This document shows positions 1,931 through 14,978 of a stretch of DNA of 64,000 bases, one piece after another. Position 1 is the first letter of the stretch. Each line of letters starts with the position of its first letter. The position numbers were made by a program, and so were the translations under genes. Where the stretch lies: assembly GCA_963719495.1 (NCBI GenBank), contig CAVRCI010000013.1, positions 224,001 to 288,000 on the forward strand, written 5' to 3'. This stretch comes from an uncultured Verrucomicrobiae bacterium (GTDB lineage Bacteria; Verrucomicrobiota; Verrucomicrobiia; Chthoniobacterales; JAATET01). The notes under the pieces were generated by a model. It did not search any database. It was given only the letters and a program-made list of their open reading frames with translations, and was not told the origin of the DNA.

Positions 1931-2674
1931 TCAAAGCGCCGACCCCGCCCGCCCGCCCGCCGCCAACGCCGCGCGCAACCGCCCCTGCGCCGCCCGCCCC
2001 AATCGCACCGGCTCGGCCATCCCCGTCAGCCAAAGCAGGCCCTCGTCCCGCGACACCCGCCGCCACCGCGCGACCGCCCCCCGGTTCACCATCAGCGACC
2101 GATCCACCCGCACGAATCGATCCACCGGTAACGCCCGTTCGTAGCGCCCCAGCACTTGACCCACCAGCAGCGGAGGTTCTCCCGCGACGAACACCCGCGT
2201 GTAATCCCCCTCAGCACGCAGCGCCACGATCCGGTCCACGGCTGCCACGACCGTCCGCCCCGGGAGCCGCAGACAGATGCGATCGTCCGCAACGTAACCG
2301 CCCGGCCAATCCCCGTCCGCCCCGCAGGCCGCCCGCAGCCGCTCCACCGCCACCCCCAGCCGCGCGACCCGAACGGGCTTCAACAAATAATCGACCGCGT
2401 CCACCACGAAAGCCCGCACCGCGTGCTCGGCGTGCGCCGTCACGAAGACGACCTTCGGCCCCTCCTTCCGCCCCTCGAGCAACCGGAACCCGTCCGCCCC
2501 CGGCATCTGCACGTCCAGAAAGATCCCGTCCGGCTTCTCCCGATCCAAAGCCTCGCCAGCCGCCGCGACCCCGTCCGCCTCCGCCACGACTTCCACGTCC
2601 GGAAACGTCGCCAACGCCCGCCGGAGCGCCTGCCGCGCCAGCCGCTCGTCATCCACCAGCATCACCCGAAGCAC
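1931..2674 (-). CDS. LytTR-family DNA-binding response regulator
   Basis: Receiver motifs VDDE, FLDVQMPG, FVTA, DYLLKP followed by a LytTR domain (AEGDYT, FVRVDRSLMVN); GTG start at 2674 overlaps the kinase stop. Confidence 0.9.
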   Translation of the reverse strand: MLRVMLVDDERLARQALRRALATFPDVEVVAEADGVAAAGEALDREKPDGIFLDVQMPGADGFRLLEGRKEGPKVVFVTAHAEHAVRAFVVDAVDYLLKPVRVARLGVAVERLRAACGADGDWPGGYVADDRICLRLPGRTVVAAVDRIVALRAEGDYTRVFVAGEPPLLVGQVLGRYERALPVDRFVRVDRSLMVNRGAVARWRRVSRDEGLLWLTGMAEPVRLGRAAQGRLRAALAAGGRAGSAL

Positions 2675-3690
2675 GGCTCGCCCTCCAAGCTCAACGAAGC
2701 TGTCACCACGCCATCGGATTGACTCAGCTCGAATCCCGACCGGCCCGGATAATGCAGTTCCAGCCGCCGCCGCAGCGTCTCCAGCCCCACCCCCTCCCGC
2801 ACCTCCAACGTCGCCGGGAGCCGCCCCGGATTCGACACCTCGATCCGCAACCGCTCGCCCGCGCAACCCGCCACGACCTTCACCTCGCAGCGCTCCGCCG
2901 CCAGACCGTGCTTCACCGCGTTCTCGATCAGCGGCTGCAGTAGGAAACTCGGCACCGTCCGATCCCTCGCCGCCGTCTCGACCTCGATCACGGCCTCCAT
3001 CCAATCCCCGTAGCGCGCCTGCTCGATCCGCAGAAACGCCACCATCGCGTCGATCTCCGTCGCCAGCGGGGTCACCAACCGATGGCGCTGATCCAACGAA
3101 TACCGCAGATAATCAGACAGCTCGTGCACCATCTCCTCCGCGACCGCCGGTTGATTCGGGATCTCCGCCGCGATGTTGTTGAGCGAATTAAAGAGAAAAT
3201 GTGGATCCAGTTGCGACCTCAGCAGATCCAGTTCCGTCCGCTCCGCCTGCTCCATCGCCCGATCCGCCAGCCGCGTCGAACGCCGCGCGAAAAACGCCAG
3301 ACTCCACGCCAGAAACGCGAACCAGCTAAAGACCAACCGCAGCAGCCATTCCTCGCGCGGCGACCAGTTTGTCGGCGTCTGCCCCGTCAAATCCGACCAG
3401 ATCAGTGCCAGCACCGTCACGAACAACCCGGCCGCCAGGCTCACCCCGACAATCAGTGCCGCCGTTGGCACGCCGAAGGGCTTCCGCAGCGACGACCGCC
3501 GATAGATCCTGTTCAGTGCGCCGGACAAAACAAATGCCGCCGGTTCCAGCAGCAACGTGAAGGACAGCGCCTCGCCCCAACTCTTGAACAACAACACGCG
3601 GATCAAAAACGCCGCCATCGCAAATCCACCCCAGGCCAGCGCGTTCCACCGCCAGAAATTCCCGGTTTGATCCGAACGCCACGCCAGCAT
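2662..3690 (-). CDS. LytS/YehU-type membrane sensor histidine kinase
   Basis: About 4 N-terminal TM segments, then LRSQLDPHFLFNSLN, LQPLIENAVKHG and GVGL motifs. Confidence 0.92.
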   Translation of the reverse strand: MLAWRSDQTGNFWRWNALAWGGFAMAAFLIRVLLFKSWGEALSFTLLLEPAAFVLSGALNRIYRRSSLRKPFGVPTAALIVGVSLAAGLFVTVLALIWSDLTGQTPTNWSPREEWLLRLVFSWFAFLAWSLAFFARRSTRLADRAMEQAERTELDLLRSQLDPHFLFNSLNNIAAEIPNQPAVAEEMVHELSDYLRYSLDQRHRLVTPLATEIDAMVAFLRIEQARYGDWMEAVIEVETAARDRTVPSFLLQPLIENAVKHGLAAERCEVKVVAGCAGERLRIEVSNPGRLPATLEVREGVGLETLRRRLELHYPGRSGFELSQSDGVVTASLSLEGEPCFG

Positions 3691-3734
3691 CGCGCGACAC
3701 TACTCACGCCCGCGGCGAACAAGCGACGTCAACG

Positions 3735-3787
3735 GCCCGATTCGGCGATTTTTTTGCCCGATTCGTCGAATTTAAAGATACATTCGT
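3735..3787 (+). promoter_or_regulatory. Putative LytTR operator: direct repeats at a 21-bp period
   Basis: GCCCGATTCGGCGA at 3735, GCCCGATTCGTCGA at 3756 and a third ATTCGT core at 3782; a ~21-22 bp period is typical of LytTR sites. Confidence 0.6.
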
Positions 3788-3811
3788 TTCGTTCGCTGCA
3801 ACCATTGGCGA

Positions 3812-6800
3812 ATGCGATTCGCTAACCTCCGTTCCGCCTCCTTCCTCTCGCTCGCAATTTTCTCCCTCGCGTCCATCCATTCAGCCTCGGCGCACGGCTC
3901 CATGGCCGATCCGCTCAGTCGATCCTACGCCGTCTTCCTCGGCAATCCCCAGTCCCCCGACAACCCCGCCCACGCCGCGGCCATCGCCGCCGCCGGCACC
4001 CAGGCCTTCTACGATTGGCACGAGGTCAACGGCCTGTTTCCCGGCCGCGATTACCAGACCCGCATCCCCGATGGCCAGCTCCCCGGCGTCGGTCGCGCCA
4101 AATACGCCGGCCTCAACCTCGCCCGCACCGATTGGCCGACCACCCCCGTCGCCCCCGGCCCCTACGCCTGCACGTTCTTCGCCCCCACCCCGCACGAACC
4201 TTCCACCTTCGAACTCTACCTCACCAAACCCGGCTACGATCCGACCCAGCCCATCAAGTGGTCCGACCTCCAACGGCTCCCCGACCCGACCGACCTCCGC
4301 CTTGAAGGAGCCAACTACCGCTTCACCGCCCAATTCCCGCAACGGACTGGTCATCACGTCCTCTACGTCATCTGGCAGCGCATCGACCCCGCCGGCGAAG
4401 CCTTCTTTTCCACCAGTGACCTCCTCTTCTCGGGATCCGGGACCAACCCCACGCCAACTCCCACTCCCGCCCCAACCCCCACGCCGCAGCCGACTCCACA
4501 GACGACCCTTTCGACGCTCGAAATCACCAGCGACTGGGGCAGCGGCTTCGTCGGACGCATCACGACCGAAAATCCCACTCACTCGCCGCTCAACGGCTGG
4601 ACGCTGCAGTTCGATCTGCCCCGCGACATCGTCAATCTCTGGGACGCCGTGATCGTCTCCCACGTCGGCGACACCTACACGGTTCGCAACGCCAGTTGGA
4701 ACGGCAACGTCGCCGCCCATGGCTCGTTTGCGTTCGGGTTCCAAGCCGCCGGCGGCGACGGGAACCTCCAACCCACCAACGTCCGACTCCTCTCCGCCGG
4801 AGCGCCCACTCCGACTCCGACGCCCGCTCCCTCTCCGAGTCCCACGCCAAACCCAACACCGGTTCCAACTCCGACTCCAACTCCCACGCCAACTCCCACG
4901 CCGACTCCAACTCCAACTCCAACTCCAACTCCCACGCCGACTCCAACTCCGACTCCAACTCCAACTCCGACTCCGACTCCAACTCCCACGCCAATTCCCG
5001 GCTCACCGAACACGACCGTCAATCTTGGGTCCGCACTCGTCACCTTCACCGTTAACAACGACTGGGGTGGCGGCTTCGAAGGACAGGTGTCCGTGAAGAA
5101 CCTCACCTCGACCACACTCCGCGCTTGGAACGTCTCCTTCGACCTGCCTCGAACCATCGCGAACGTCTGGAACGCCCGCATCGCGTCCCAGTCCGGCTCC
5201 ACCTTCCGCTTCAACGCCAAGACCTTTTCCTGGAACCGCGACATCCGACCCGGTGCCACCGTTTCCTTCGGGTTCATCGGCTCCGCCGGGAACCTCCGCA
5301 CCTCGCCCACGAACTTCGCCTTCTCCTCCAGCGGCGCCGTTCCAAACCCAACGCCAACGCCAACGCCAACGCCAACGCCAACGCCAACTCCCACTCCCAC
5401 TCCCACTCCCACTCCGACGCCAACGCCCACTCCCACTCCCACCCCAACTCCCACTCCGACGCCCACTCCGACGCCCACACCAACGCCCACACCAACGCCA
5501 ACTCCCACCCCGGGCAGCTTCAACTACGGCGAAGTCCTCCAGAAATCCCTCTACTTCTACGAAGCCCAACGTTCCGGTGCTCTTCCCGCCGACACCCGCG
5601 TCGTCTGGCGCGGTGACTCCGCCCTTGGCGACGGCTCCGACGTCGGCGTCGACCTCACCGGTGGCTACTACGACGCCGGCGATCACGTCAAATTCGCCCT
5701 CCCCATGTTCGGCTCGCTCACCCTCCTCGCGTGGGGCGGCATCGAATACCCCGCTGGCTACGGCACCGAGCGCGACGCGCTCCTCGCCACCGTCCGCTGG
5801 GGCACCGACTGGATCCTCGAGGCCAACCCCGCCCCCAACGTCCTCTACGGTCAGGTCGGCAACGGCGGTCTCGACCACGCCTACTGGGGACCGGCCGAGA
5901 CGATGACGATGGCCCGCCCGGCCTACGCGATCACCGCGCAAAAACCCGGCACCGAGATCGCCGGCGAAGCCGCCGCCGCCCTCGCCGCCTCCTCGATGCT
6001 CTTCCGCAATGACGATCCGACCTACGCCGCCACGCTCCTCGCCCGCGCCCGCCAGCTCTACACTTTCGCCGATACCCACCGCGGCACCTACACGGCGGCA
6101 ATCCCCGACGCCGCGGCCTACTACAATTCCTACTCCGGCTACGACGACGAACTCCTCTGGGCCGCCGTCTGGCTTCACCGCGCCACCGGCGAAGCCCCCT
6201 ACCTCCAGGCCGCCGAATCCCTCTTCACGCAAAAATTCGCGACCGCCACCCCGCGTTGGACCCACAACTGGGACGACAAAGGCTACGGTGCCGCCCTCCT
6301 CCTCGCCCAACTCACCGGCAAACCCGTTTACAAGACGATGACCGAGCGCTTCCTGAACTATTGGACCACCGGCGACAACGGTGCCCGCGTCACCTACACG
6401 CCCGGCGGCCTCGCCTGGCTCGCCCAGTGGGGATCCCTCCGCTACGCCACCACCACCGCCTTCCTCGCCGGCCTCTACGCCGACCGCGTCCGCGACGTCG
6501 GCACCCGCTACGCCGACTTTGCCAAGCGCCAGGTCGACTACGCCCTCGGCGACAACCCCGCCAACCGCTCCTACGTCGTCGGCTTCGGCAACAATCCTCC
6601 CATCAATCCCCACCACCGCACCGCCCACGGCTCCTGGGCGAACTCGATCACCAACCCCACCGACAACCGCCACATCCTCTACGGCGCCCTCGTCGGCGGA
6701 CCCTCCTCCGCCTCCGACACCGCCTACGTCGACGACCGCACGAACTTCATCACCAACGAAGTCGCCCTCGATTACAACGCCGGCTTCACCGGCGCCCTCG

Positions 6801-7330
6801 CCCGACTCCGCCAAATCCACGGCGGCAACCCACTCGCGAATTTTCCGCCGACGGAACTCCCCGACGACGAGTTCTTCGTCGAGGCCAGCATCAACCAGCA
6901 GAACTCGAACTTCACCGAGATCCGCGCCCTCCTGAACAACCGCTCCGCCTTCCCGGCCGGCGCGTCCGACTTCCTCTCCTTCCGCTACTACCTCGACCTC
7001 TCGGAACTCCTCGCCACCGGCTACCAACCCACCGACCTCGTCGTCACCTCCGCCTACAACCAAGGCGCGACCGTCACCGGCCCGATCCTCCACGACGCCG
7101 CCCGCCAGCTCTACTACCTCTCGGTCGACTTCACCGGCACGCGGCTCGCCCCCGGCAGCAGCCAAACTTTCCGCAAGGAAATCCAATTCCGCATCGCCGC
7201 GCCGACGACCGCCGCGTGGAACCCCACCAACGACCCATCCTACCAAGGTCTCGCCACCGGCACCCCCCGGAAGACCGCCACCATCCCCGTCTTCCAAGGC
7301 ACCGAACTCCTCGAAGGCACCGTCCCCTGA
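3812..7330 (+). CDS. Secreted multimodular enzyme: AA10 LPMO - CBM2 - CBM2 - GH9 cellulase - CBM3c
   Basis: Signal peptide ending ASA|H (His1 at 3893), second His in PTPHEP, WQRID..EAFF; two CBM2 domains (DWGxGF..W..WN); PT linkers; GH9 motifs [12 protein letters not shown] and [11 protein letters not shown]-terminal CBM3c ([15 protein letters not shown]). Confidence 0.92.
4805..4997 (+). repeat. Pro-Thr linker hexanucleotide repeat
   Basis: (CCNACN)n encoding PTPT between the two CBM2 domains. Confidence 0.9.
5345..5511 (+). repeat. Pro-Thr linker hexanucleotide repeat
   Basis: (CCNACN)n encoding PTPT between CBM2 and GH9. Confidence 0.9.
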
Positions 7331-7452: not shown

Positions 7453-8133
7453 ATGTCACTCAAAGTCCTGCTCGCCAACAATCGCCGCTGGTCCGACGAC
7501 ATTCGCGCCGCCAACCCCGGGTTTTTCCCCGGCCTCGCCCGCCAGCAGAATCCCGATTACCTCTGGATCGGGTGCGCCGACAGCCGCGTGCCCGCCAACG
7601 AAATCGTCGGGCTCCCACCCGGCGAGATTTTCGTCCACCGCAACGTCGCCAACCTCGTCGGCACCACGGATTTCAATTGCCTCGCCGTCGTCGAGTTCGC
7701 CGTCCTCATCCTCAAGGTCAAACACATCATCGTCTGCGGCCACTACGGCTGCGGCGGGGTCAAGGCCGCCTTCGAGCGCCACCAGATCGGACTCATCGAC
7801 AACTGGCTCCACCCCATTACGCTCATCGCCGAGAAGCACCGCCCGCTCATCGACGAAACCCCCGACCCCGAACGCCAGCTCCGCGTCCTCTGCGAGCTCA
7901 ACGTCGTCGAGCAGGTCCGCACCCTCTGCACCACCTCGCTCCTCCGCGACGCCTGGCTCGCCGGTCAGGAACTCTCGATCCACGGCGTCGTCTACGGCCT
8001 CAAGGACGGTCTCCTCCACGATCTGAACACCACCGTCACCGACTCCGACGGCATCGGCCCGGGCTGCGACCGCGCCGTCGCCGGCATCGCCACCCGGCTC
8101 AGGAACGGGACGCCCACGCCACCAGACCGCTGA
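7453..8133 (+). CDS. can: Beta-class carbonic anhydrase
   Basis: CADSR and GHYGCGG Zn-binding motifs; FVHRNVAN. Confidence 0.93.
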   Translation: MSLKVLLANNRRWSDDIRAANPGFFPGLARQQNPDYLWIGCADSRVPANEIVGLPPGEIFVHRNVANLVGTTDFNCLAVVEFAVLILKVKHIIVCGHYGCGGVKAAFERHQIGLIDNWLHPITLIAEKHRPLIDETPDPERQLRVLCELNVVEQVRTLCTTSLLRDAWLAGQELSIHGVVYGLKDGLLHDLNTTVTDSDGIGPGCDRAVAGIATRLRNGTPTPPDR

Positions 8134-8865: not shown

Positions 8866-8908
8866 GCGAGACCGGATTCCGGACCATTTCTCTTTCCTAA
8901 AAAATCTC

Positions 8909-9406
8909 ATGAACCTCAATAAACTCGCATCCAGCCCCACTCCGGAACCCGCACCCATGGGTGGCTCCGGCAAGAACGTTCTCGCCAACGACGTCGAGAT
9001 CAAGGGCACCATCAAATTCGACAACGAACTCATCTGCGACGGTAAAGTCGAAGGCGAGATTCTCTCCGACGGCGTCCTCGTCATCGGCAAGAACGCCGTG
9101 GTTCGCGGCGAAGTCATGACCAAGGCCGTCACCGTTCACGGCACCGTCCTCGGCAACATCACCGTCACCGAGAAGGCCGAGCTCAAAGCCAGCTCGCAGC
9201 TCACCGGCGACCTCACCGCCTCCCGCATCGTCATCGAGGAAGGTGCCACCTTCGTCGGCAAATCCGAAGTCACTCCGAACAAAAATTCGAGCCGCCCCGC
9301 ACCGACCAAGCCAGCGGACTCCCCGCCGTCCTCCGATTCGAAATCCGGTTCCCCGAACCAACCCGCCTCGCAGCCGGACCGGGCCAAGGAAGTCGCCAAC
9401 GCCTAA
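8909..9406 (+). CDS. Bactofilin (polymer-forming cytoskeletal protein)
   Basis: VEIKGTIKF..ICDGKVEGEI..VRGEV..VHGTVLGNI..LTGDL..IEEGATFVG beta-helix pattern; disordered tail. Confidence 0.9.
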   Translation: MNLNKLASSPTPEPAPMGGSGKNVLANDVEIKGTIKFDNELICDGKVEGEILSDGVLVIGKNAVVRGEVMTKAVTVHGTVLGNITVTEKAELKASSQLTGDLTASRIVIEEGATFVGKSEVTPNKNSSRPAPTKPADSPPSSDSKSGSPNQPASQPDRAKEVANA

Positions 9407-9455
9407 CCGGCGTCTGACCACCGCTCCGCGCTCCGCCAGCGCCGGGATTTGACCA

Positions 9456-10241
9456 ATGTTTGGCGCAATCCGAAAAATTCCGACCACGTGCCCGCACTGC
9501 GGATTCGTTCAAAACGAACCCGCGGCGCTCCTCTCCACGTTCTGCCGGAGCTGCGGCGACCACTACTCGACCACCGCCGCGCCGCCGAACCCGGCCGCCA
9601 TCCCGGTCACCATCCCCGCGGCCCTCAGGGCTCAGACGAGAACTGTCGACTGCGCCGGTTGCGGCCTCGACCACACCGTCTCCGCCCAAATCCACTCGTC
9701 ACGCTGCCCCACCTGCGGCACCGAGACCCACCTCTCCGACGTTCACATCACCAGCCACTTCGCCCGCCCGGTCGACACCCGTGGCACGATCCACGTCGCC
9801 CGCACCGGTTACCTCAATGCCCCCCACACCCGCTGCGCGAACGCCCGCATCGAGGGCCAATTTTCCGGACGCATCGACTGCGCCGGCACCCTGCGTATCC
9901 GAGGCGAAGGCATCTGCCGCGCCCGCATCGAGACCCGCACCCTCATCATCGACCGCGGGAGCGACTTCCGCTTCGCCTTCCCCATCCGGGCCGACGAAAT
10001 CCTCATCCGCGGCCACGTCGAAGCCGACATTTTCTGCCCCGGCACCATCCGCGTCGGCCGCTACGGCTGGCTCGACGGCGACGTCCACACCCGCTCCCTC
10101 ATCGTCGACAAAGGCGGCGCCTACGAAGGCTCCGTCGAGGTCGCCACCACGATCATCGACAACTACCCCCGGGCCGGCGCCATCCGCCCACCGGAAATCA
10201 AAGTCCTCCCCGCCTGGCAATCCATCTTCGCCACCGCGTAG
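9456..10241 (+). CDS. Double zinc-ribbon plus bactofilin-domain protein
   Basis: Four CxxC motifs (CPHC, CRSC, CAGC, CPTC) followed by bactofilin-like repeats ending VDKGGAYEG. Confidence 0.75.
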   Translation: MFGAIRKIPTTCPHCGFVQNEPAALLSTFCRSCGDHYSTTAAPPNPAAIPVTIPAALRAQTRTVDCAGCGLDHTVSAQIHSSRCPTCGTETHLSDVHITSHFARPVDTRGTIHVARTGYLNAPHTRCANARIEGQFSGRIDCAGTLRIRGEGICRARIETRTLIIDRGSDFRFAFPIRADEILIRGHVEADIFCPGTIRVGRYGWLDGDVHTRSLIVDKGGAYEGSVEVATTIIDNYPRAGAIRPPEIKVLPAWQSIFATA

Positions 10242-12815: not shown

Positions 12816-12844
12816 ACGGCGCCGCGTAAGCGTCCGTGCGGGGG

Positions 12845-12913
12845 GAGTCCTTTCTGATTTTTCGGGGGAAAGGCTGTCCTAACACATCCCCGTGTCTCAA
12901 ATCAGAAAAACTC
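12845..12913 (+). promoter_or_regulatory. Hairpin sequestering the translation-initiation region (possible expression platform)
   Basis: GAGT..TTTCTGATTT (12845-12860) pairs with AAATCAGAAA.ACTC, which ends immediately before the ATG at 12914. Confidence 0.5.
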
Positions 12914-13609
12914 ATGATAAAGTCACTTCTTCGGAAGCTCCTCGTCGCGTCGACCCTTGCCGCCGCCGCACTCACCACGTCCCTTCAATCGGCCCCGATC
13001 ACGGGATTCGACGACATCCAACTCTGGTATGGCACCGGCACCAACCGCGCCGGCTTAGTTATCGACTGGAACGACGGCAAATCCTCCAACAGCCTCGCGT
13101 GGGGCTTTCGCTGGAACGGCACCGCCACCGGCGAGGACATGTTCACCGCCGTCGCCGGAGCCATCGCCACATTCGCCAGCGGCACTCCGGCACCCCCACC
13201 TTCCCCCGACGGTTTGGGCGACCCAAGTCTCGCGCTCTACCAGCGCCAGTTCTCGTCCGGAAATTCCGTCGACCGCATCACCTTCGATCTCAACGGCAAC
13301 GGTGCGCTGGACGCGGGTGACAACGACCAGAACAGCGATGGGTTCATGAATGGGTTTTGGAGCTATTGGAACGACGAAGGCACCGGCGACTACCCGACAA
13401 GCTGGACGGACGCACCAGTCGGTTTCTCGGACCGCGACCTCGTAAACGGAAGCTGGGACGCCTGGAGCTACGTTCCAGATTTCGACGGAATCCCACCCCG
13501 CGCCGCCATCGCGGCGGTCCCTGAACCCAGATCCATCTGGCTCCTGATCACCGCCGTCAGCACAGCCATCGTAATCGCCGTCACCCGCCACCGCCGTGCA
13601 AAACTCTGA
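12914..13609 (+). CDS. PEP-CTERM surface protein, Trp/Asp-rich (candidate corrinoid-binding)
   Basis: Signal peptide; C-terminal VPEP-TM-RHRR sorting signal; first gene after the riboswitch. Confidence 0.85.
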   Translation: MIKSLLRKLLVASTLAAAALTTSLQSAPITGFDDIQLWYGTGTNRAGLVIDWNDGKSSNSLAWGFRWNGTATGEDMFTAVAGAIATFASGTPAPPPSPDGLGDPSLALYQRQFSSGNSVDRITFDLNGNGALDAGDNDQNSDGFMNGFWSYWNDEGTGDYPTSWTDAPVGFSDRDLVNGSWDAWSYVPDFDGIPPRAAIAAVPEPRSIWLLITAVSTAIVIAVTRHRRAKL

Positions 13610-14385
13610 TGCGGCCGCATCGAAGTTTTGCAAGGTTTGGGGGTTTTCGTGCGTTCACGCTGATCGAGATTTTGGTGACCCTCGCGGTGGTAGTTGCTCT
13701 CGCGGCGCTCACTACCCAAGTCGCGCGCGCCGTCTACCTGCGATCTTCGCTGGCCGTGTCAGCGGCCAACATTCGGGCCCTGTCCGTGGGCGCGGCGCAA
13801 TACCTGGCCGAGAATAACCATCGCTTCTGGAAATTTCGCGAAGACTCCTCCGACGGGACAACTTGGTGGTGGGGGTTCGAGACAACAGCCAGTCGGGCTC
13901 GCCCGGAAGGTGATCGCACCTACGATCCAAGTCGCGGACCCCTCCGCGAATTCATCCCCGCAGGCACTCGTCCGGACCCCAGCTTCGCGTTGAGCGGCTC
14001 GGCGTTTAAACCAAAGTTCCAAAGTGGCTACGTCGGTGCCGGCTACAACGTCCTCCTCTGCGGCGGATTCGCCGGCACCCGGACCAATCCCCTCGCCGGT
14101 CGAAGCTACTGGGAACTCAGCGACCCTTCGAAAGTCGTCGTCTTCACCACCTCCGCTCAGGTCTACCCCTTCGGTTCCGCCAGCAAACCCCGGATCGAGG
14201 AGTTTTACGGCATCGACCAACGCGAGACGACCGTCCACTTCCGGCACGGAGGATCGGCCATGGTCGCCTACGCCAGCGGCGCCAGCGGCTTCCTCCCGCC
14301 CGACGAATCCACCCTCGACAAACGGGCACCCGAAGCGAAAATCGGTCGCTTCGCACCCGTCGGCAGCCGAAAATACCTGGAATGA
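13609..14385 (+). CDS. Prepilin-type N-terminal cleavage/methylation protein with a degenerate H-X9-DG motif
   Basis: RA|FTLIEILVTLAVV; C-terminal HFRHGGSAMVAYASG; TGATG coupling to the previous gene. Confidence 0.85.
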   Translation: MRPHRSFARFGGFRAFTLIEILVTLAVVVALAALTTQVARAVYLRSSLAVSAANIRALSVGAAQYLAENNHRFWKFREDSSDGTTWWWGFETTASRARPEGDRTYDPSRGPLREFIPAGTRPDPSFALSGSAFKPKFQSGYVGAGYNVLLCGGFAGTRTNPLAGRSYWELSDPSKVVVFTTSAQVYPFGSASKPRIEEFYGIDQRETTVHFRHGGSAMVAYASGASGFLPPDESTLDKRAPEAKIGRFAPVGSRKYLE

Positions 14386-14978
14386 AAACACCATCCGCCC
14401 GCCTCACCACCCCGATTCTCGCCCTCGCGCTCGGCCTTCTCCTCGTCGGAGCCTTCTTCCGCGTCATCCGACTCGAAGCCCTCCCCGCCCTCCCGAATTT
14501 CGCCCCCCTCATGGCCATCGCCCTCTGCGGTGCCCTCGTCCTCCCCGGTGCCGTCGCCATCCTCGTCCCGCTCACCGCCCTGATCGTCTCGGACGTCCTC
14601 CTCAACTTCCACTACGGCTACCCCGCCGTCGGCTCCGACGAGCTGCTCCGCTACGCCATTTACGGCATCGGCATCGCCTCCGGCATCGCCCTCCGCGGCC
14701 GCCGCGCCCCGATGATCTTTGGTGCCGTTGCCGCAAACTCGTTCCTCTTCTACCTCGTCTCGAACACCGCGTCCTGGTTCGGCAACTTCGGCTACGCGCA
14801 GACCGCCGCCGGCTGGGTTCAAGCCCTCACCGTCGGCCTCCCCGGATTCCCGCCCACCTGGGTCTTCTTCCGCAACTCCCTCGCCAGCGACCTCCTCTTC
14901 GCGGGCATCTTCCTCGGAGCGCTCGCCCTCGTGCGCCAGTCTCGCCAGACGCAATCGCCTCAGCTGGCAAAAGTTTAA
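14382..14978 (+). CDS. DUF6580/BtuM-like membrane protein (solitary ECF S-component-like)
   Basis: About 6 TM segments; PNFAPLMAIAL, FYLVSN..W, Y..T..G..ALT.GLP and FFRNSL.SDL motifs; ATGA overlap. Confidence 0.75.
   Translation: MKTPSARLTTPILALALGLLLVGAFFRVIRLEALPALPNFAPLMAIALCGALVLPGAVAILVPLTALIVSDVLLNFHYGYPAVGSDELLRYAIYGIGIASGIALRGRRAPMIFGAVAANSFLFYLVSNTASWFGNFGYAQTAAGWVQALTVGLPGFPPTWVFFRNSLASDLLFAGIFLGALALVRQSRQTQSPQLAKV

Follow-up and report, generated by a model that had tools for sequence, protein, structure and literature searches.

A natural fusion of an AA10 lytic polysaccharide monooxygenase with a Cel9A-type cellulase that recurs in Verrucomicrobia

We analyzed a 64,000-nt stretch of DNA (the window) from an uncultured Verrucomicrobiae bacterium of the order Chthoniobacterales (GenBank assembly GCA_963719495.1, contig CAVRCI010000013.1, positions 224,001 to 288,000), in which a single gene encodes a lytic polysaccharide monooxygenase (LPMO) of family AA10, two carbohydrate-binding modules (CBMs) of family 2 and a glycoside hydrolase (GH) of family 9 with its CBM3c. 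The fusion is real and intact, it is less rare than an earlier note on this DNA had held, and the design recurs in Verrucomicrobia. Our reading, to which we assign a probability of about 0.6, is that the product is a secreted enzyme with a cellulose-active, probably dual, LPMO that delivers chain ends to its own GH9.

The open reading frame (ORF; 3812-7330, forward strand) is one reading frame without internal stops and encodes 1172 amino acids (aa) in the order signal peptide-AA10-CBM2-CBM2-GH9-CBM3c (Table 1), with every catalytic residue that was checked intact. Pfam placed LPMO_10 at residues 28-204 (E 4e-39), two CBM_2 domains, Glyco_hydro_9 at 572-996 (E 1e-151) and CBM_3 at 1023-1104, and an NCBIfam scan of the product gave no equivalog above cut-off. 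Residue numbers are those of the precursor unless marked mature, His28 being mature residue 1. The signal peptide was called by eye: residues 1-27 have the basic start, hydrophobic core and A-S-A end of a Sec-like signal. As the earlier note had proposed, cleavage would expose a histidine, since His28 aligned with residue 1 of the solved chains of CbpD, Tma12, ScLPMO10D and CjLPMO10A. Its further claims of a second brace histidine and an axial phenylalanine (His128 and Phe198 by alignment), of two CBM2s with Pro/Thr linkers, of an intact GH9 with the motifs DAGD and TNEVA, and of a CBM3c all held in the Pfam searches and alignments. The LPMO and the hydrolase consequently lie within one chain, predicted to be secreted, as in a bicatalytic LPMO-GH.

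The hydrolytic half is of the Cel9A type, which is the architecture the earlier note had named. Residues 569-1149 matched the GH9-CBM3c of Thermobifida fusca Cel9A (PDB 1js4) at E 1e-206, and both Pfam and the PDB alignments showed the CBM3c directly fused to the GH9. DAGD (621-624) and TNEVA (981-985) aligned with Asp55/Asp58 and Glu424 of Cel9A, and we take Asp621, Asp624 and Glu983 to have the catalytic roles of these counterparts; the three residues and the aromatic motifs of the cleft were aligned to both 1js4 and 1g87. The direct fusion, the Asp/Asp/Glu set and the cleft motifs are shared with T. fusca Cel9A and with Clostridium Cel9G and Cel9I, but here the GH9-CBM3c is C-terminal, with CBM2s in front of it and the LPMO at the N terminus. 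Cel9A-type enzymes work from the non-reducing ends of chains. The CBM3c renders such an enzyme processive (PMC4579020; this and the other papers cited by PMC number were available in part, and what we take from them extends to those parts).

It is hardly conceivable that an assembly error in the Pro/Thr repeats created the fusion, or that two separate genes were taken for one. The linkers are of low complexity and the question was judged without reads on this stretch, but the longest exact match is 14 nt between the linkers and 17 nt between a linker and the rest of the genome, and the ORF holds neither a second signal peptide nor a stop. AA10 was found in 10 of the 17 genomes of the family (family and order tallies include one unpublished genome, G010; genus-level claims are independent of it). 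The nine other AA10 loci of the family comprise six whole AA10-CBM2-CBM2-(Calx)-GH9-CBM3c ORFs (G002, G003, G005, G007, G012 and G016), one frameshifted ORF (G001) and two that run off contig ends; in G003 the entire neighbourhood is conserved around the fusion. The same domain order thus stands in a single ORF in six other family genomes, and it is found in 17 complete ORFs from the 80 best of 590 confirmed genome loci, a set with some overlap both with the family genomes and with the protein hits described below. Against five relatives the ratio of non-synonymous to synonymous substitutions (dN/dS) was 0.10-0.17 for the AA10 and 0.12-0.26 for the GH9, i.e. the fusion is under purifying selection. 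On the strength of the intact orthologues, the non-repetitive linker DNA and these ratios we reject misassembly and merged genes.

The AA10 domain is closest to the chitin-active ScLPMO10D/CbpD lineage, and the chitin-type residue pair, the axial alanine and the disulfides have been lost clade-wide. An AlphaFold2 model of the domain (mean predicted local distance difference test score 96.7) has the LPMO10 beta-sandwich fold, in line with its PF03067 match, and the best structures retrieved with Foldseek were ScLPMO10D, Tma12 and CbpD (template modelling (TM) score 0.92-0.94, identity 43-47%; 0.94 to 7zjb). The earlier note had seen a resemblance to a Tma12/ScLPMO10D/CjLPMO10A clade, to which alignment and Foldseek add CbpD. 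Matches in a viral fold search were limited to fusolin/GP37-type AA10 relatives. The histidine brace, His28 and His128 (with the cleavage site read from the sequence), aligned with 7zjb, 6if7 and 8c5n, as did the axial Phe198 and the gatekeeper Glu196. The second sphere of Arg190 and Glu196 is that of cellulose-active, C1-oxidising enzymes of the ScLPMO10C type, yet it is common to the chitin-active ScLPMO10D. With ScLPMO10D (subclade A2), Tma12 and CbpD the domain shares the Tyr-Asp-Trp start of the L2 motif (Tyr67-Asp68, mature Tyr40-Asp41, as in chitin-active types) and the Arg/Glu/Phe centre. Those three enzymes keep an Asn-Thr/Ser pair, the axial Ala and the disulfides (PMC10067821, PMC9344471), and none of them is fused to a hydrolase. 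Here, His70/Pro125 (mature 43/98, with the pair assigned by the numbering of PMC10067821) replace the chitin pair (Asn76/Thr131 of ScLPMO10D), so that P-T-P-H stands instead of the chitin-type T-A-x-H motif as defined in the same two papers; Thr126 (mature 99) takes the place of the axial Ala (ScLPMO10D Ala132), which is usual but not universal in AA10; and the whole protein has one Cys, as opposed to the conserved disulfides of the ScLPMO10D/CbpD type. The earlier note mentioned neither the axial Thr and the missing cysteines nor the two-component pair and repeat upstream of the gene, which are described below.

These changes are properties of a clade, here 246 AA10 domains on a FastTree tree (support 92), with 117 domains outside. 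At mature position 99 the clade has Thr in 158 domains, Val in 67, Ala in 16, Ile in 3 and Ser in 2, so that Thr, Val or Ile is found in 228 of 246 domains vs. 11 of 117 outside, where 105 have Ala. At most one Cys is present in 208 of the 246, while all 117 outside have two or more, and all 12 named actinobacterial relatives retain Thr-Ala and four Cys, three of them with His at position 43. Mature His101, Arg163, Glu169 and Phe171 are invariant in all 209 close domains, which speaks for a functional copper site, and a Trp near the active site is invariant or nearly so among the AA10 relatives. Specificity positions vary more. Thr98 occurs in none of 48 GH9-only fusions vs. 15 of 29 GH18-only fusions, and the full Asn43+Thr98 pair in 0/48 vs. 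7/29; Pro98 is found in 16 GH9 fusions and in 9/29 GH18 fusions. Trp at position 98, the cellulose-type residue, is present in 34 of the 246 clade members, and this protein is not one of them. The Trp98 sub-branch consists of stand-alone AA10-CBM2 proteins (part of P0089-P0146; loci L070, L083, L093 and L101), and by its residues it could possibly be an independent move to cellulose. A surface signature specific to GH9 fusions was sought and not found, as the best-separating columns follow lineage and only four independent pairs exist.

Converting the cellulose-active ScLPMO10C to a chitinolytic enzyme required changing both positions of the pair (PMC10067821), and the present domain, by its residues, fits neither the chitin nor the cellulose type, a pattern that hints at dual activity. 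The substrate switch or dual activity considered in the earlier note is favoured by indirect evidence, namely the lost chitin pair and the lack of a detected GH18 in the genus. In the host genome, which is 98.6% complete, GH18 was not found, nor was it in the other five genomes of the genus (0/6; the GH18 control gave a signal in 5/14), and GH9 is present in all six. Counting the fusion, this genome has two Cel9A-like GH9 genes, two GH5 whose best structural matches are cellulases, a GH3 of beta-glucosidase type and one weak GH20 (E 1e-10); a search of it for GH94 found none. The second GH9 (L021:6150-8510 on G000 C13, outside the window) is a CBM2-CBM2-GH9 without CBM3c, 60% identical in the GH9 and without a strong site for the upstream repeat described below.

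We propose that the protein is exported by the Sec route and its signal cleaved, after which the two CBM2s, judging by their family, would anchor it on crystalline cellulose. The AA10 would bind copper in its histidine brace and, with a reductant and O2 or H2O2, cut surface chains oxidatively, probably at C1, because the Arg/Glu/Phe centre is common to the C1-oxidising ScLPMO10C and ScLPMO10D. The tethered GH9-CBM3c could then pick up the loosened chains and hydrolyze them processively, as C1 oxidation would leave non-reducing ends unmodified, and the separate GH5 endoglucanases and GH3 beta-glucosidase would complete the breakdown. In evolutionary terms, an AA10 of the chitin-active ScLPMO10D/CbpD lineage would have become a cellulose-active, probably dual cellulose/chitin, enzyme by changing its axial Ala to Thr and its residue pair to His/Pro and by losing its disulfides. 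Dual activity would allow one clade to be attached to GH9, GH18 or GH5.

Several observations weigh against such a cellulose-directed enzyme. Its main rival is an AA10 that is chitin-only like ScLPMO10D and CbpD, with the LPMO loosening chitin that shields cellulose and the GH9 harvesting the cellulose, two substrates served from a shared anchor. The setting would be mixed material such as fungus-colonised litter, arthropod remains or algal walls. The nearest tested relatives are indeed chitin-active: ScLPMO10D and CbpD act on chitin and ScLPMO10D is inactive on cellulose (PMC10067821), and no oxidative activity has been reported for Tma12. The domain retains Tyr40-Asp41 as in CbpD and lacks the hydrophobic Phe-Trp pair of the ScLPMO10C type, with His70/Pro125 in its place. 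GH18 is fused to the same clade and even to the same His43/Pro98/Thr99 signature, in two cases in genomes without GH9, and triple AA10-GH18-GH9 as well as AA10-GH5-GH18 proteins exist. An AA10-PL7-GH9 form joins domains of differing substrates in this family, and in some genomes the upstream repeat precedes both GH9 and GH18 genes, among them a CBM2-GH18 gene in G022. The first CBM2 scores equally with a chitinase CBM2 (ChiC 2rtt) and a cellulase/xylanase CBM2 (Cex 1exg), and CBM2s bind chitin besides cellulose (PMC4144037). Moreover, the Thr98 contrast between GH9 and GH18 fusions rests on four independent pairs (sign test p ~0.5). Controls in the GH19 searches were silent as well, which leaves the absence of GH19 unestablished. 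Further afield the genome content varies: the 14 other AA10-GH9 genomes include six with strong GH18, three with weak GH18 and five with none, and eight of the 10 AA10-GH18 genomes are without GH9 (completeness not given for either set). Gene decay or an assembly error has broken up the G001 orthologue (L017:8490-12148), which is frameshifted within the AA10 and again behind the first CBM2, and G004 has no AA10 gene at all. We nevertheless consider a chitin-only AA10 unlikely, as none of the six genomes of the genus has a GH18 and this one has a single weak GH20, so that released chitin would be of little use to the host, and purifying selection on the AA10 is nonetheless as strong as on the GH9. 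Further, the Asn/Thr chitin pair is missing from all 48 GH9-only fusions.

The altered copper site could also mark a change of role, in which a copper-binding AA10 has another main target (xyloglucan, mixed-linkage glucan, xylan or another wall polymer that coats cellulose) or acts mainly as a module that binds the surface or makes peroxide without cleaving chains. The bulkier axial Thr and the lost disulfides would be its signs; the bias at position 99, the presence of neither the chitin nor the cellulose pair and the suggestion that chitin activity is possibly not the true function of the ScLPMO10D lineage (PMC10067821) all fit. Yet little or no variation is seen in the brace, the Phe, Arg and Glu or the Trp close to the site, the model has a canonical fold, a non-Ala residue is compatible with activity, as shown by Gly at the axial Ala position in the cellulose-active TtAA10A (PMC6767633), and the partner domains are all CBM2 and hydrolases of cellulase or chitinase families, PL7 excepted. 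Such a role is accordingly distinctly improbable in our judgement, and a cellulose-active, probably dual LPMO is the reading that we retain.

The earlier note had thought the AA10-GH9 fusion rare, and this did not stand. Among 63 long AA10 homologues (644-2051 aa; architecture checked with Pfam on 18 of them) the hydrolase partner was GH9 alone in 31, GH18 alone in 20, GH5 and GH18 in 4, GH5 in 3, GH18 and GH9 in 3, and none in 2. P0062 (GH9 with an internal AA10), one of the 31, was dropped, leaving 30, because a further signal peptide precedes its AA10 and it looks like the product of two merged genes. No other hydrolase is joined to this AA10 clade as often as GH9. Besides the 17 complete GH9-only fusions, the best 80 of the 590 loci include 11 complete GH18-only, 4 GH5+GH18 and 2 GH18+GH9 fusions, 21 complete proteins without a hydrolase and 25 cut by the end of the locus. 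Of 201 genomes sampled from the order, 40 were found to have an AA10, and the named hosts belong to Chthoniobacterales, Terrimicrobiaceae, Methylacidiphilales, Verrucomicrobiales, Cerasicoccus and Planctomycetota. The nearest named relatives are Chthoniobacterales, Spartobacteria and Terrimicrobiaceae records, which agrees with the host from the Planctomycetes-Verrucomicrobia-Chlamydiae (PVC) group that the earlier note had deduced.

On a 49-domain tree the GH9-only label needs five changes, at least four of which are forced by well-supported branches. A single origin of the GH9 fusion was rejected by the approximately unbiased (AU) test (p 0.003 for 23 PVC GH9-only domains; p 4e-28 with P0235 added), run on LG+G4 quick trees of 47 hand-picked domains and 179 columns. 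As the alignments are short, the rows hand-picked and the model LG+G4, we take this as indicative only of repeated swapping of the hydrolase partner. P0235 (AA10-CBM2-GH9-CBM3) lies outside the clade, keeps the cysteines and the axial Ala, has Trp at 98 and is sister to the AA10-CBM2-GH18 proteins P0255 and P0260. By sequence and placement it is an independent AA10-GH9 fusion outside the PVC clade, and its C-terminal tag is presumably a sign of a Chloroflexota origin.

Other combinations were also seen. Cerasicoccus and a relative have a triple-catalytic AA10-(CBM2)3-GH18-GH9 (P0036, P0039, P0040; L068, L090), which, being found in two cultured species, is the form whose physiology could most readily be studied; the Cerasicoccus form is without the upstream repeat described below. 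Proteins of 1750-2000 aa with the order AA10-CBM2-GH5-Calx-CBM2-GH18 have Met at AA10 position 43 (P0031, P0041-P0043; L057, L058, L061, L063), a PL7 (alginate-lyase-like) domain occurs in AA10 fusions with or without GH9 (P0026; L052; L077), and AA10-GH5 fusions were found among distant relatives (P0261, P0351).

A divergent pair of genes for a LytS/AlgZ-like kinase and a LytTR regulator lies next to the fusion gene, and we suggest that this pair switches it on through a direct repeat in front of the start codon. LytTR sites consist of a pair of 9-bp repeats, separated by 12 bp, a short way upstream of the target (PMC6193735). The repeat found here has this 9+12+9 geometry, within the 11-13 bp spacing expected of LytTR-regulated promoters, and is linked to a LytTR regulator, as in LytTR-family systems; the core sequence differs from described sites, and here the kinase is LytS/AlgZ-like and the targets degrade polysaccharides. 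A scan of 3600-3900 gave no sigma-70 consensus. Of 9 family loci, 7 have the kinase upstream in divergent orientation, and among the best 80 of the 590 loci it lies within 450 nt in 18 and at 1.4-2.8 kb in 9 more. The repeat could be aligned in all 22 loci with an adjacent kinase (leave-one-out scores 25-47), and with a model built without this genus it was the top site in this genome, at 41.8 vs. 21.9 for the next. Where the kinase lies farther away the repeat still precedes the AA10 gene (9 of 9), and where no kinase is in view it does so in 17 of 52 cases, the other 35 scoring below 1. A close kinase orthologue elsewhere in the genome was found in 7 of 9 repeat-bearing vs. 1 of 7 repeat-lacking genomes tested, and G004, which has no AA10, has no close kinase orthologue either. 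In G001 the kinase is on a different contig and the repeat is retained.

Beyond AA10 genes, the repeat stands before stand-alone CBM2-GH9-CBM3 genes in G031 and G032, before the gene of a CBM2 protein that weakly matches GH18 (G024) and before a GH8-like gene (G035). It was absent at 5 of the 6 GH18 loci examined from AA10-GH9 genomes and present at the sixth. G027 holds both an AA10-PL7-CBM2-GH9 and an AA10-CBM2-GH18 (L106, L052), with the repeat before the first only. A genome-wide regulon was sought in the present genome and not found: there is a single outstanding site, and none of the 25 best sites belongs to the second GH9.

A wider interpretation would make the PVC-wide AA10 subclade a generalist oxidase of crystalline polysaccharides, a plug-in head swapped among GH9, GH18 and GH5 under one LytS/LytTR regulon, with this protein as a single-chain combination of LPMO and processive cellulase showing intramolecular synergy. 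We put this forward tentatively, as a possibility that at present falls short of an even chance. A route of this kind, with a Thr/Val axial gate, no disulfides and neither residue pair, would be new, and aquatic and soil Verrucomicrobia would then be overlooked oxidative degraders of cellulose. To our knowledge oxidative attack on crystalline polysaccharides is not commonly attributed to this order, and the presence of AA10 in about one fifth of its sampled genomes gives the question ecological relevance.

Within the literature searched the AA10-GH9 fusion is undescribed, as the earlier note had supposed: we found no study of an AA10-GH9 enzyme or of a Verrucomicrobial AA10, in a search whose coverage excluded most subscription papers and which is not proof. 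The available parts of PMC11653725, PMC5309792 and bioRxiv 10.64898/2026.07.25.740686 contain nothing on such a fusion. A 2023 review gives Jd1381 of Jonesia denitrificans, an AA10-CBM5-GH18 protein, as the only characterised bicatalytic LPMO and, in its available part, does not mention GH9 (PMC10154629); its section 5 offers Jd1381 as a precedent for intramolecular synergy. Jd1381 likewise has an N-terminal AA10, a CBM and a hydrolase in one secreted chain, but it is a chitinase and not a cellulase, has a CBM5 and not two CBM2s, and its AA10 (PDB 5aa7) is only 19% identical to ours (TM score 0.61). AA10-GH genes numbered 2 of 495 in one survey, which termed the pairing rare (PMC4144037). Eukaryotic AA15 with GH9 or GH18 has been noted bioinformatically (PMC8615602), and PMC5823890 mentions AA15 with GH18 or GH19; the AA15-GH9 proteins share the LPMO-GH9 pairing but belong to another LPMO family, are eukaryotic and are uncharacterised in PMC8615602. 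Uncharacterised AA10s of Planctomycetota form their own cluster (PMC11131199).

Synergy between LPMOs and cellulases underlies industrial saccharification, but according to the 2023 review only a chitinase has been studied among natural fusions of an LPMO with a hydrolase (PMC10154629). The present protein is a natural fusion of the cellulase type with many orthologues to choose among. Its clade is a natural experiment on how AA10 enzymes choose between chitin and cellulose, with near-identical domains that are joined to cellulases or chitinases, that differ at the two specificity positions, one of which can be Thr, Pro, His, Ala or Trp, and that all have a residue other than Ala as the gate next to the copper. 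The remodelled copper site, the genus without detected GH18 and the conserved regulator site together give a handle on AA10 substrate choice, and the upstream repeat gives one on induction of the gene.

Table 1. Features of the fusion gene and of the region upstream of it (positions in the window)
Feature	Position	Strand	Basis or remark
LytTR response regulator, true start probably ~2670 vs. listed 3004	1931..2670	-	PF00072, PF04397; travels with the kinase
LytS/AlgZ-like membrane histidine kinase, divergent	2662..3690	-	PF06580
Direct repeat, candidate LytTR site: 9-nt cores 3741-3749 and 3762-3770, 12 nt apart	3741..3770	+	41 nt before the start codon
Predicted Sec signal peptide, aa 1-27, cleavage exposes His1	3812..3892	+	Sequence; His28 aligned to residue 1 of solved AA10 chains
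AA10 LPMO domain, aa 28-206	3893..4429	+	PF03067; alignment to 7zjb, 6if7, 8c5n; predicted model
Short Pro/Thr linker after AA10	4430..4504	+	Sequence
CBM2 no. 1, three surface Trp	4505..4795	+	PF00553; alignment to ChiC CBM2 2rtt and Cex CBM2 1exg
Long Pro/Thr linker, ~64 aa, degenerate at DNA level	4802..4993	+	Exact-match comparison
CBM2 no. 2	5024..5335	+	PF00553 at aa 410-504; Trp motifs located
Long Pro/Thr linker, ~58 aa	5336..5509	+	Sequence
GH9 catalytic domain, Cel9A type (Asp621, Asp624, Glu983)	5513..6826	+	PF00759; alignments to PDB 8u49, 1js4, 1g87
CBM3c joined directly to GH9	6854..7327	+	PF00942; one-stretch alignment with GH9-CBM3c of 1js4, 1g87; also 2xfg_B

Directly downstream of the fusion lies a gene for a beta-carbonic anhydrase (7453-8133, forward strand). 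This linkage is kept in G003 only, and the enzyme is therefore probably outside the fusion's system. Further along the forward strand are tandem bactofilin genes (8897-10241), the second with N-terminal Cys-rich motifs, and at 12836-14978 a series of genes for a secreted protein with a C-terminal tag, which we take to be of the VPEP type, a prepilin-like protein (both without a Pfam match) and a DUF6580 membrane protein, which looks like a small uptake or surface cluster.

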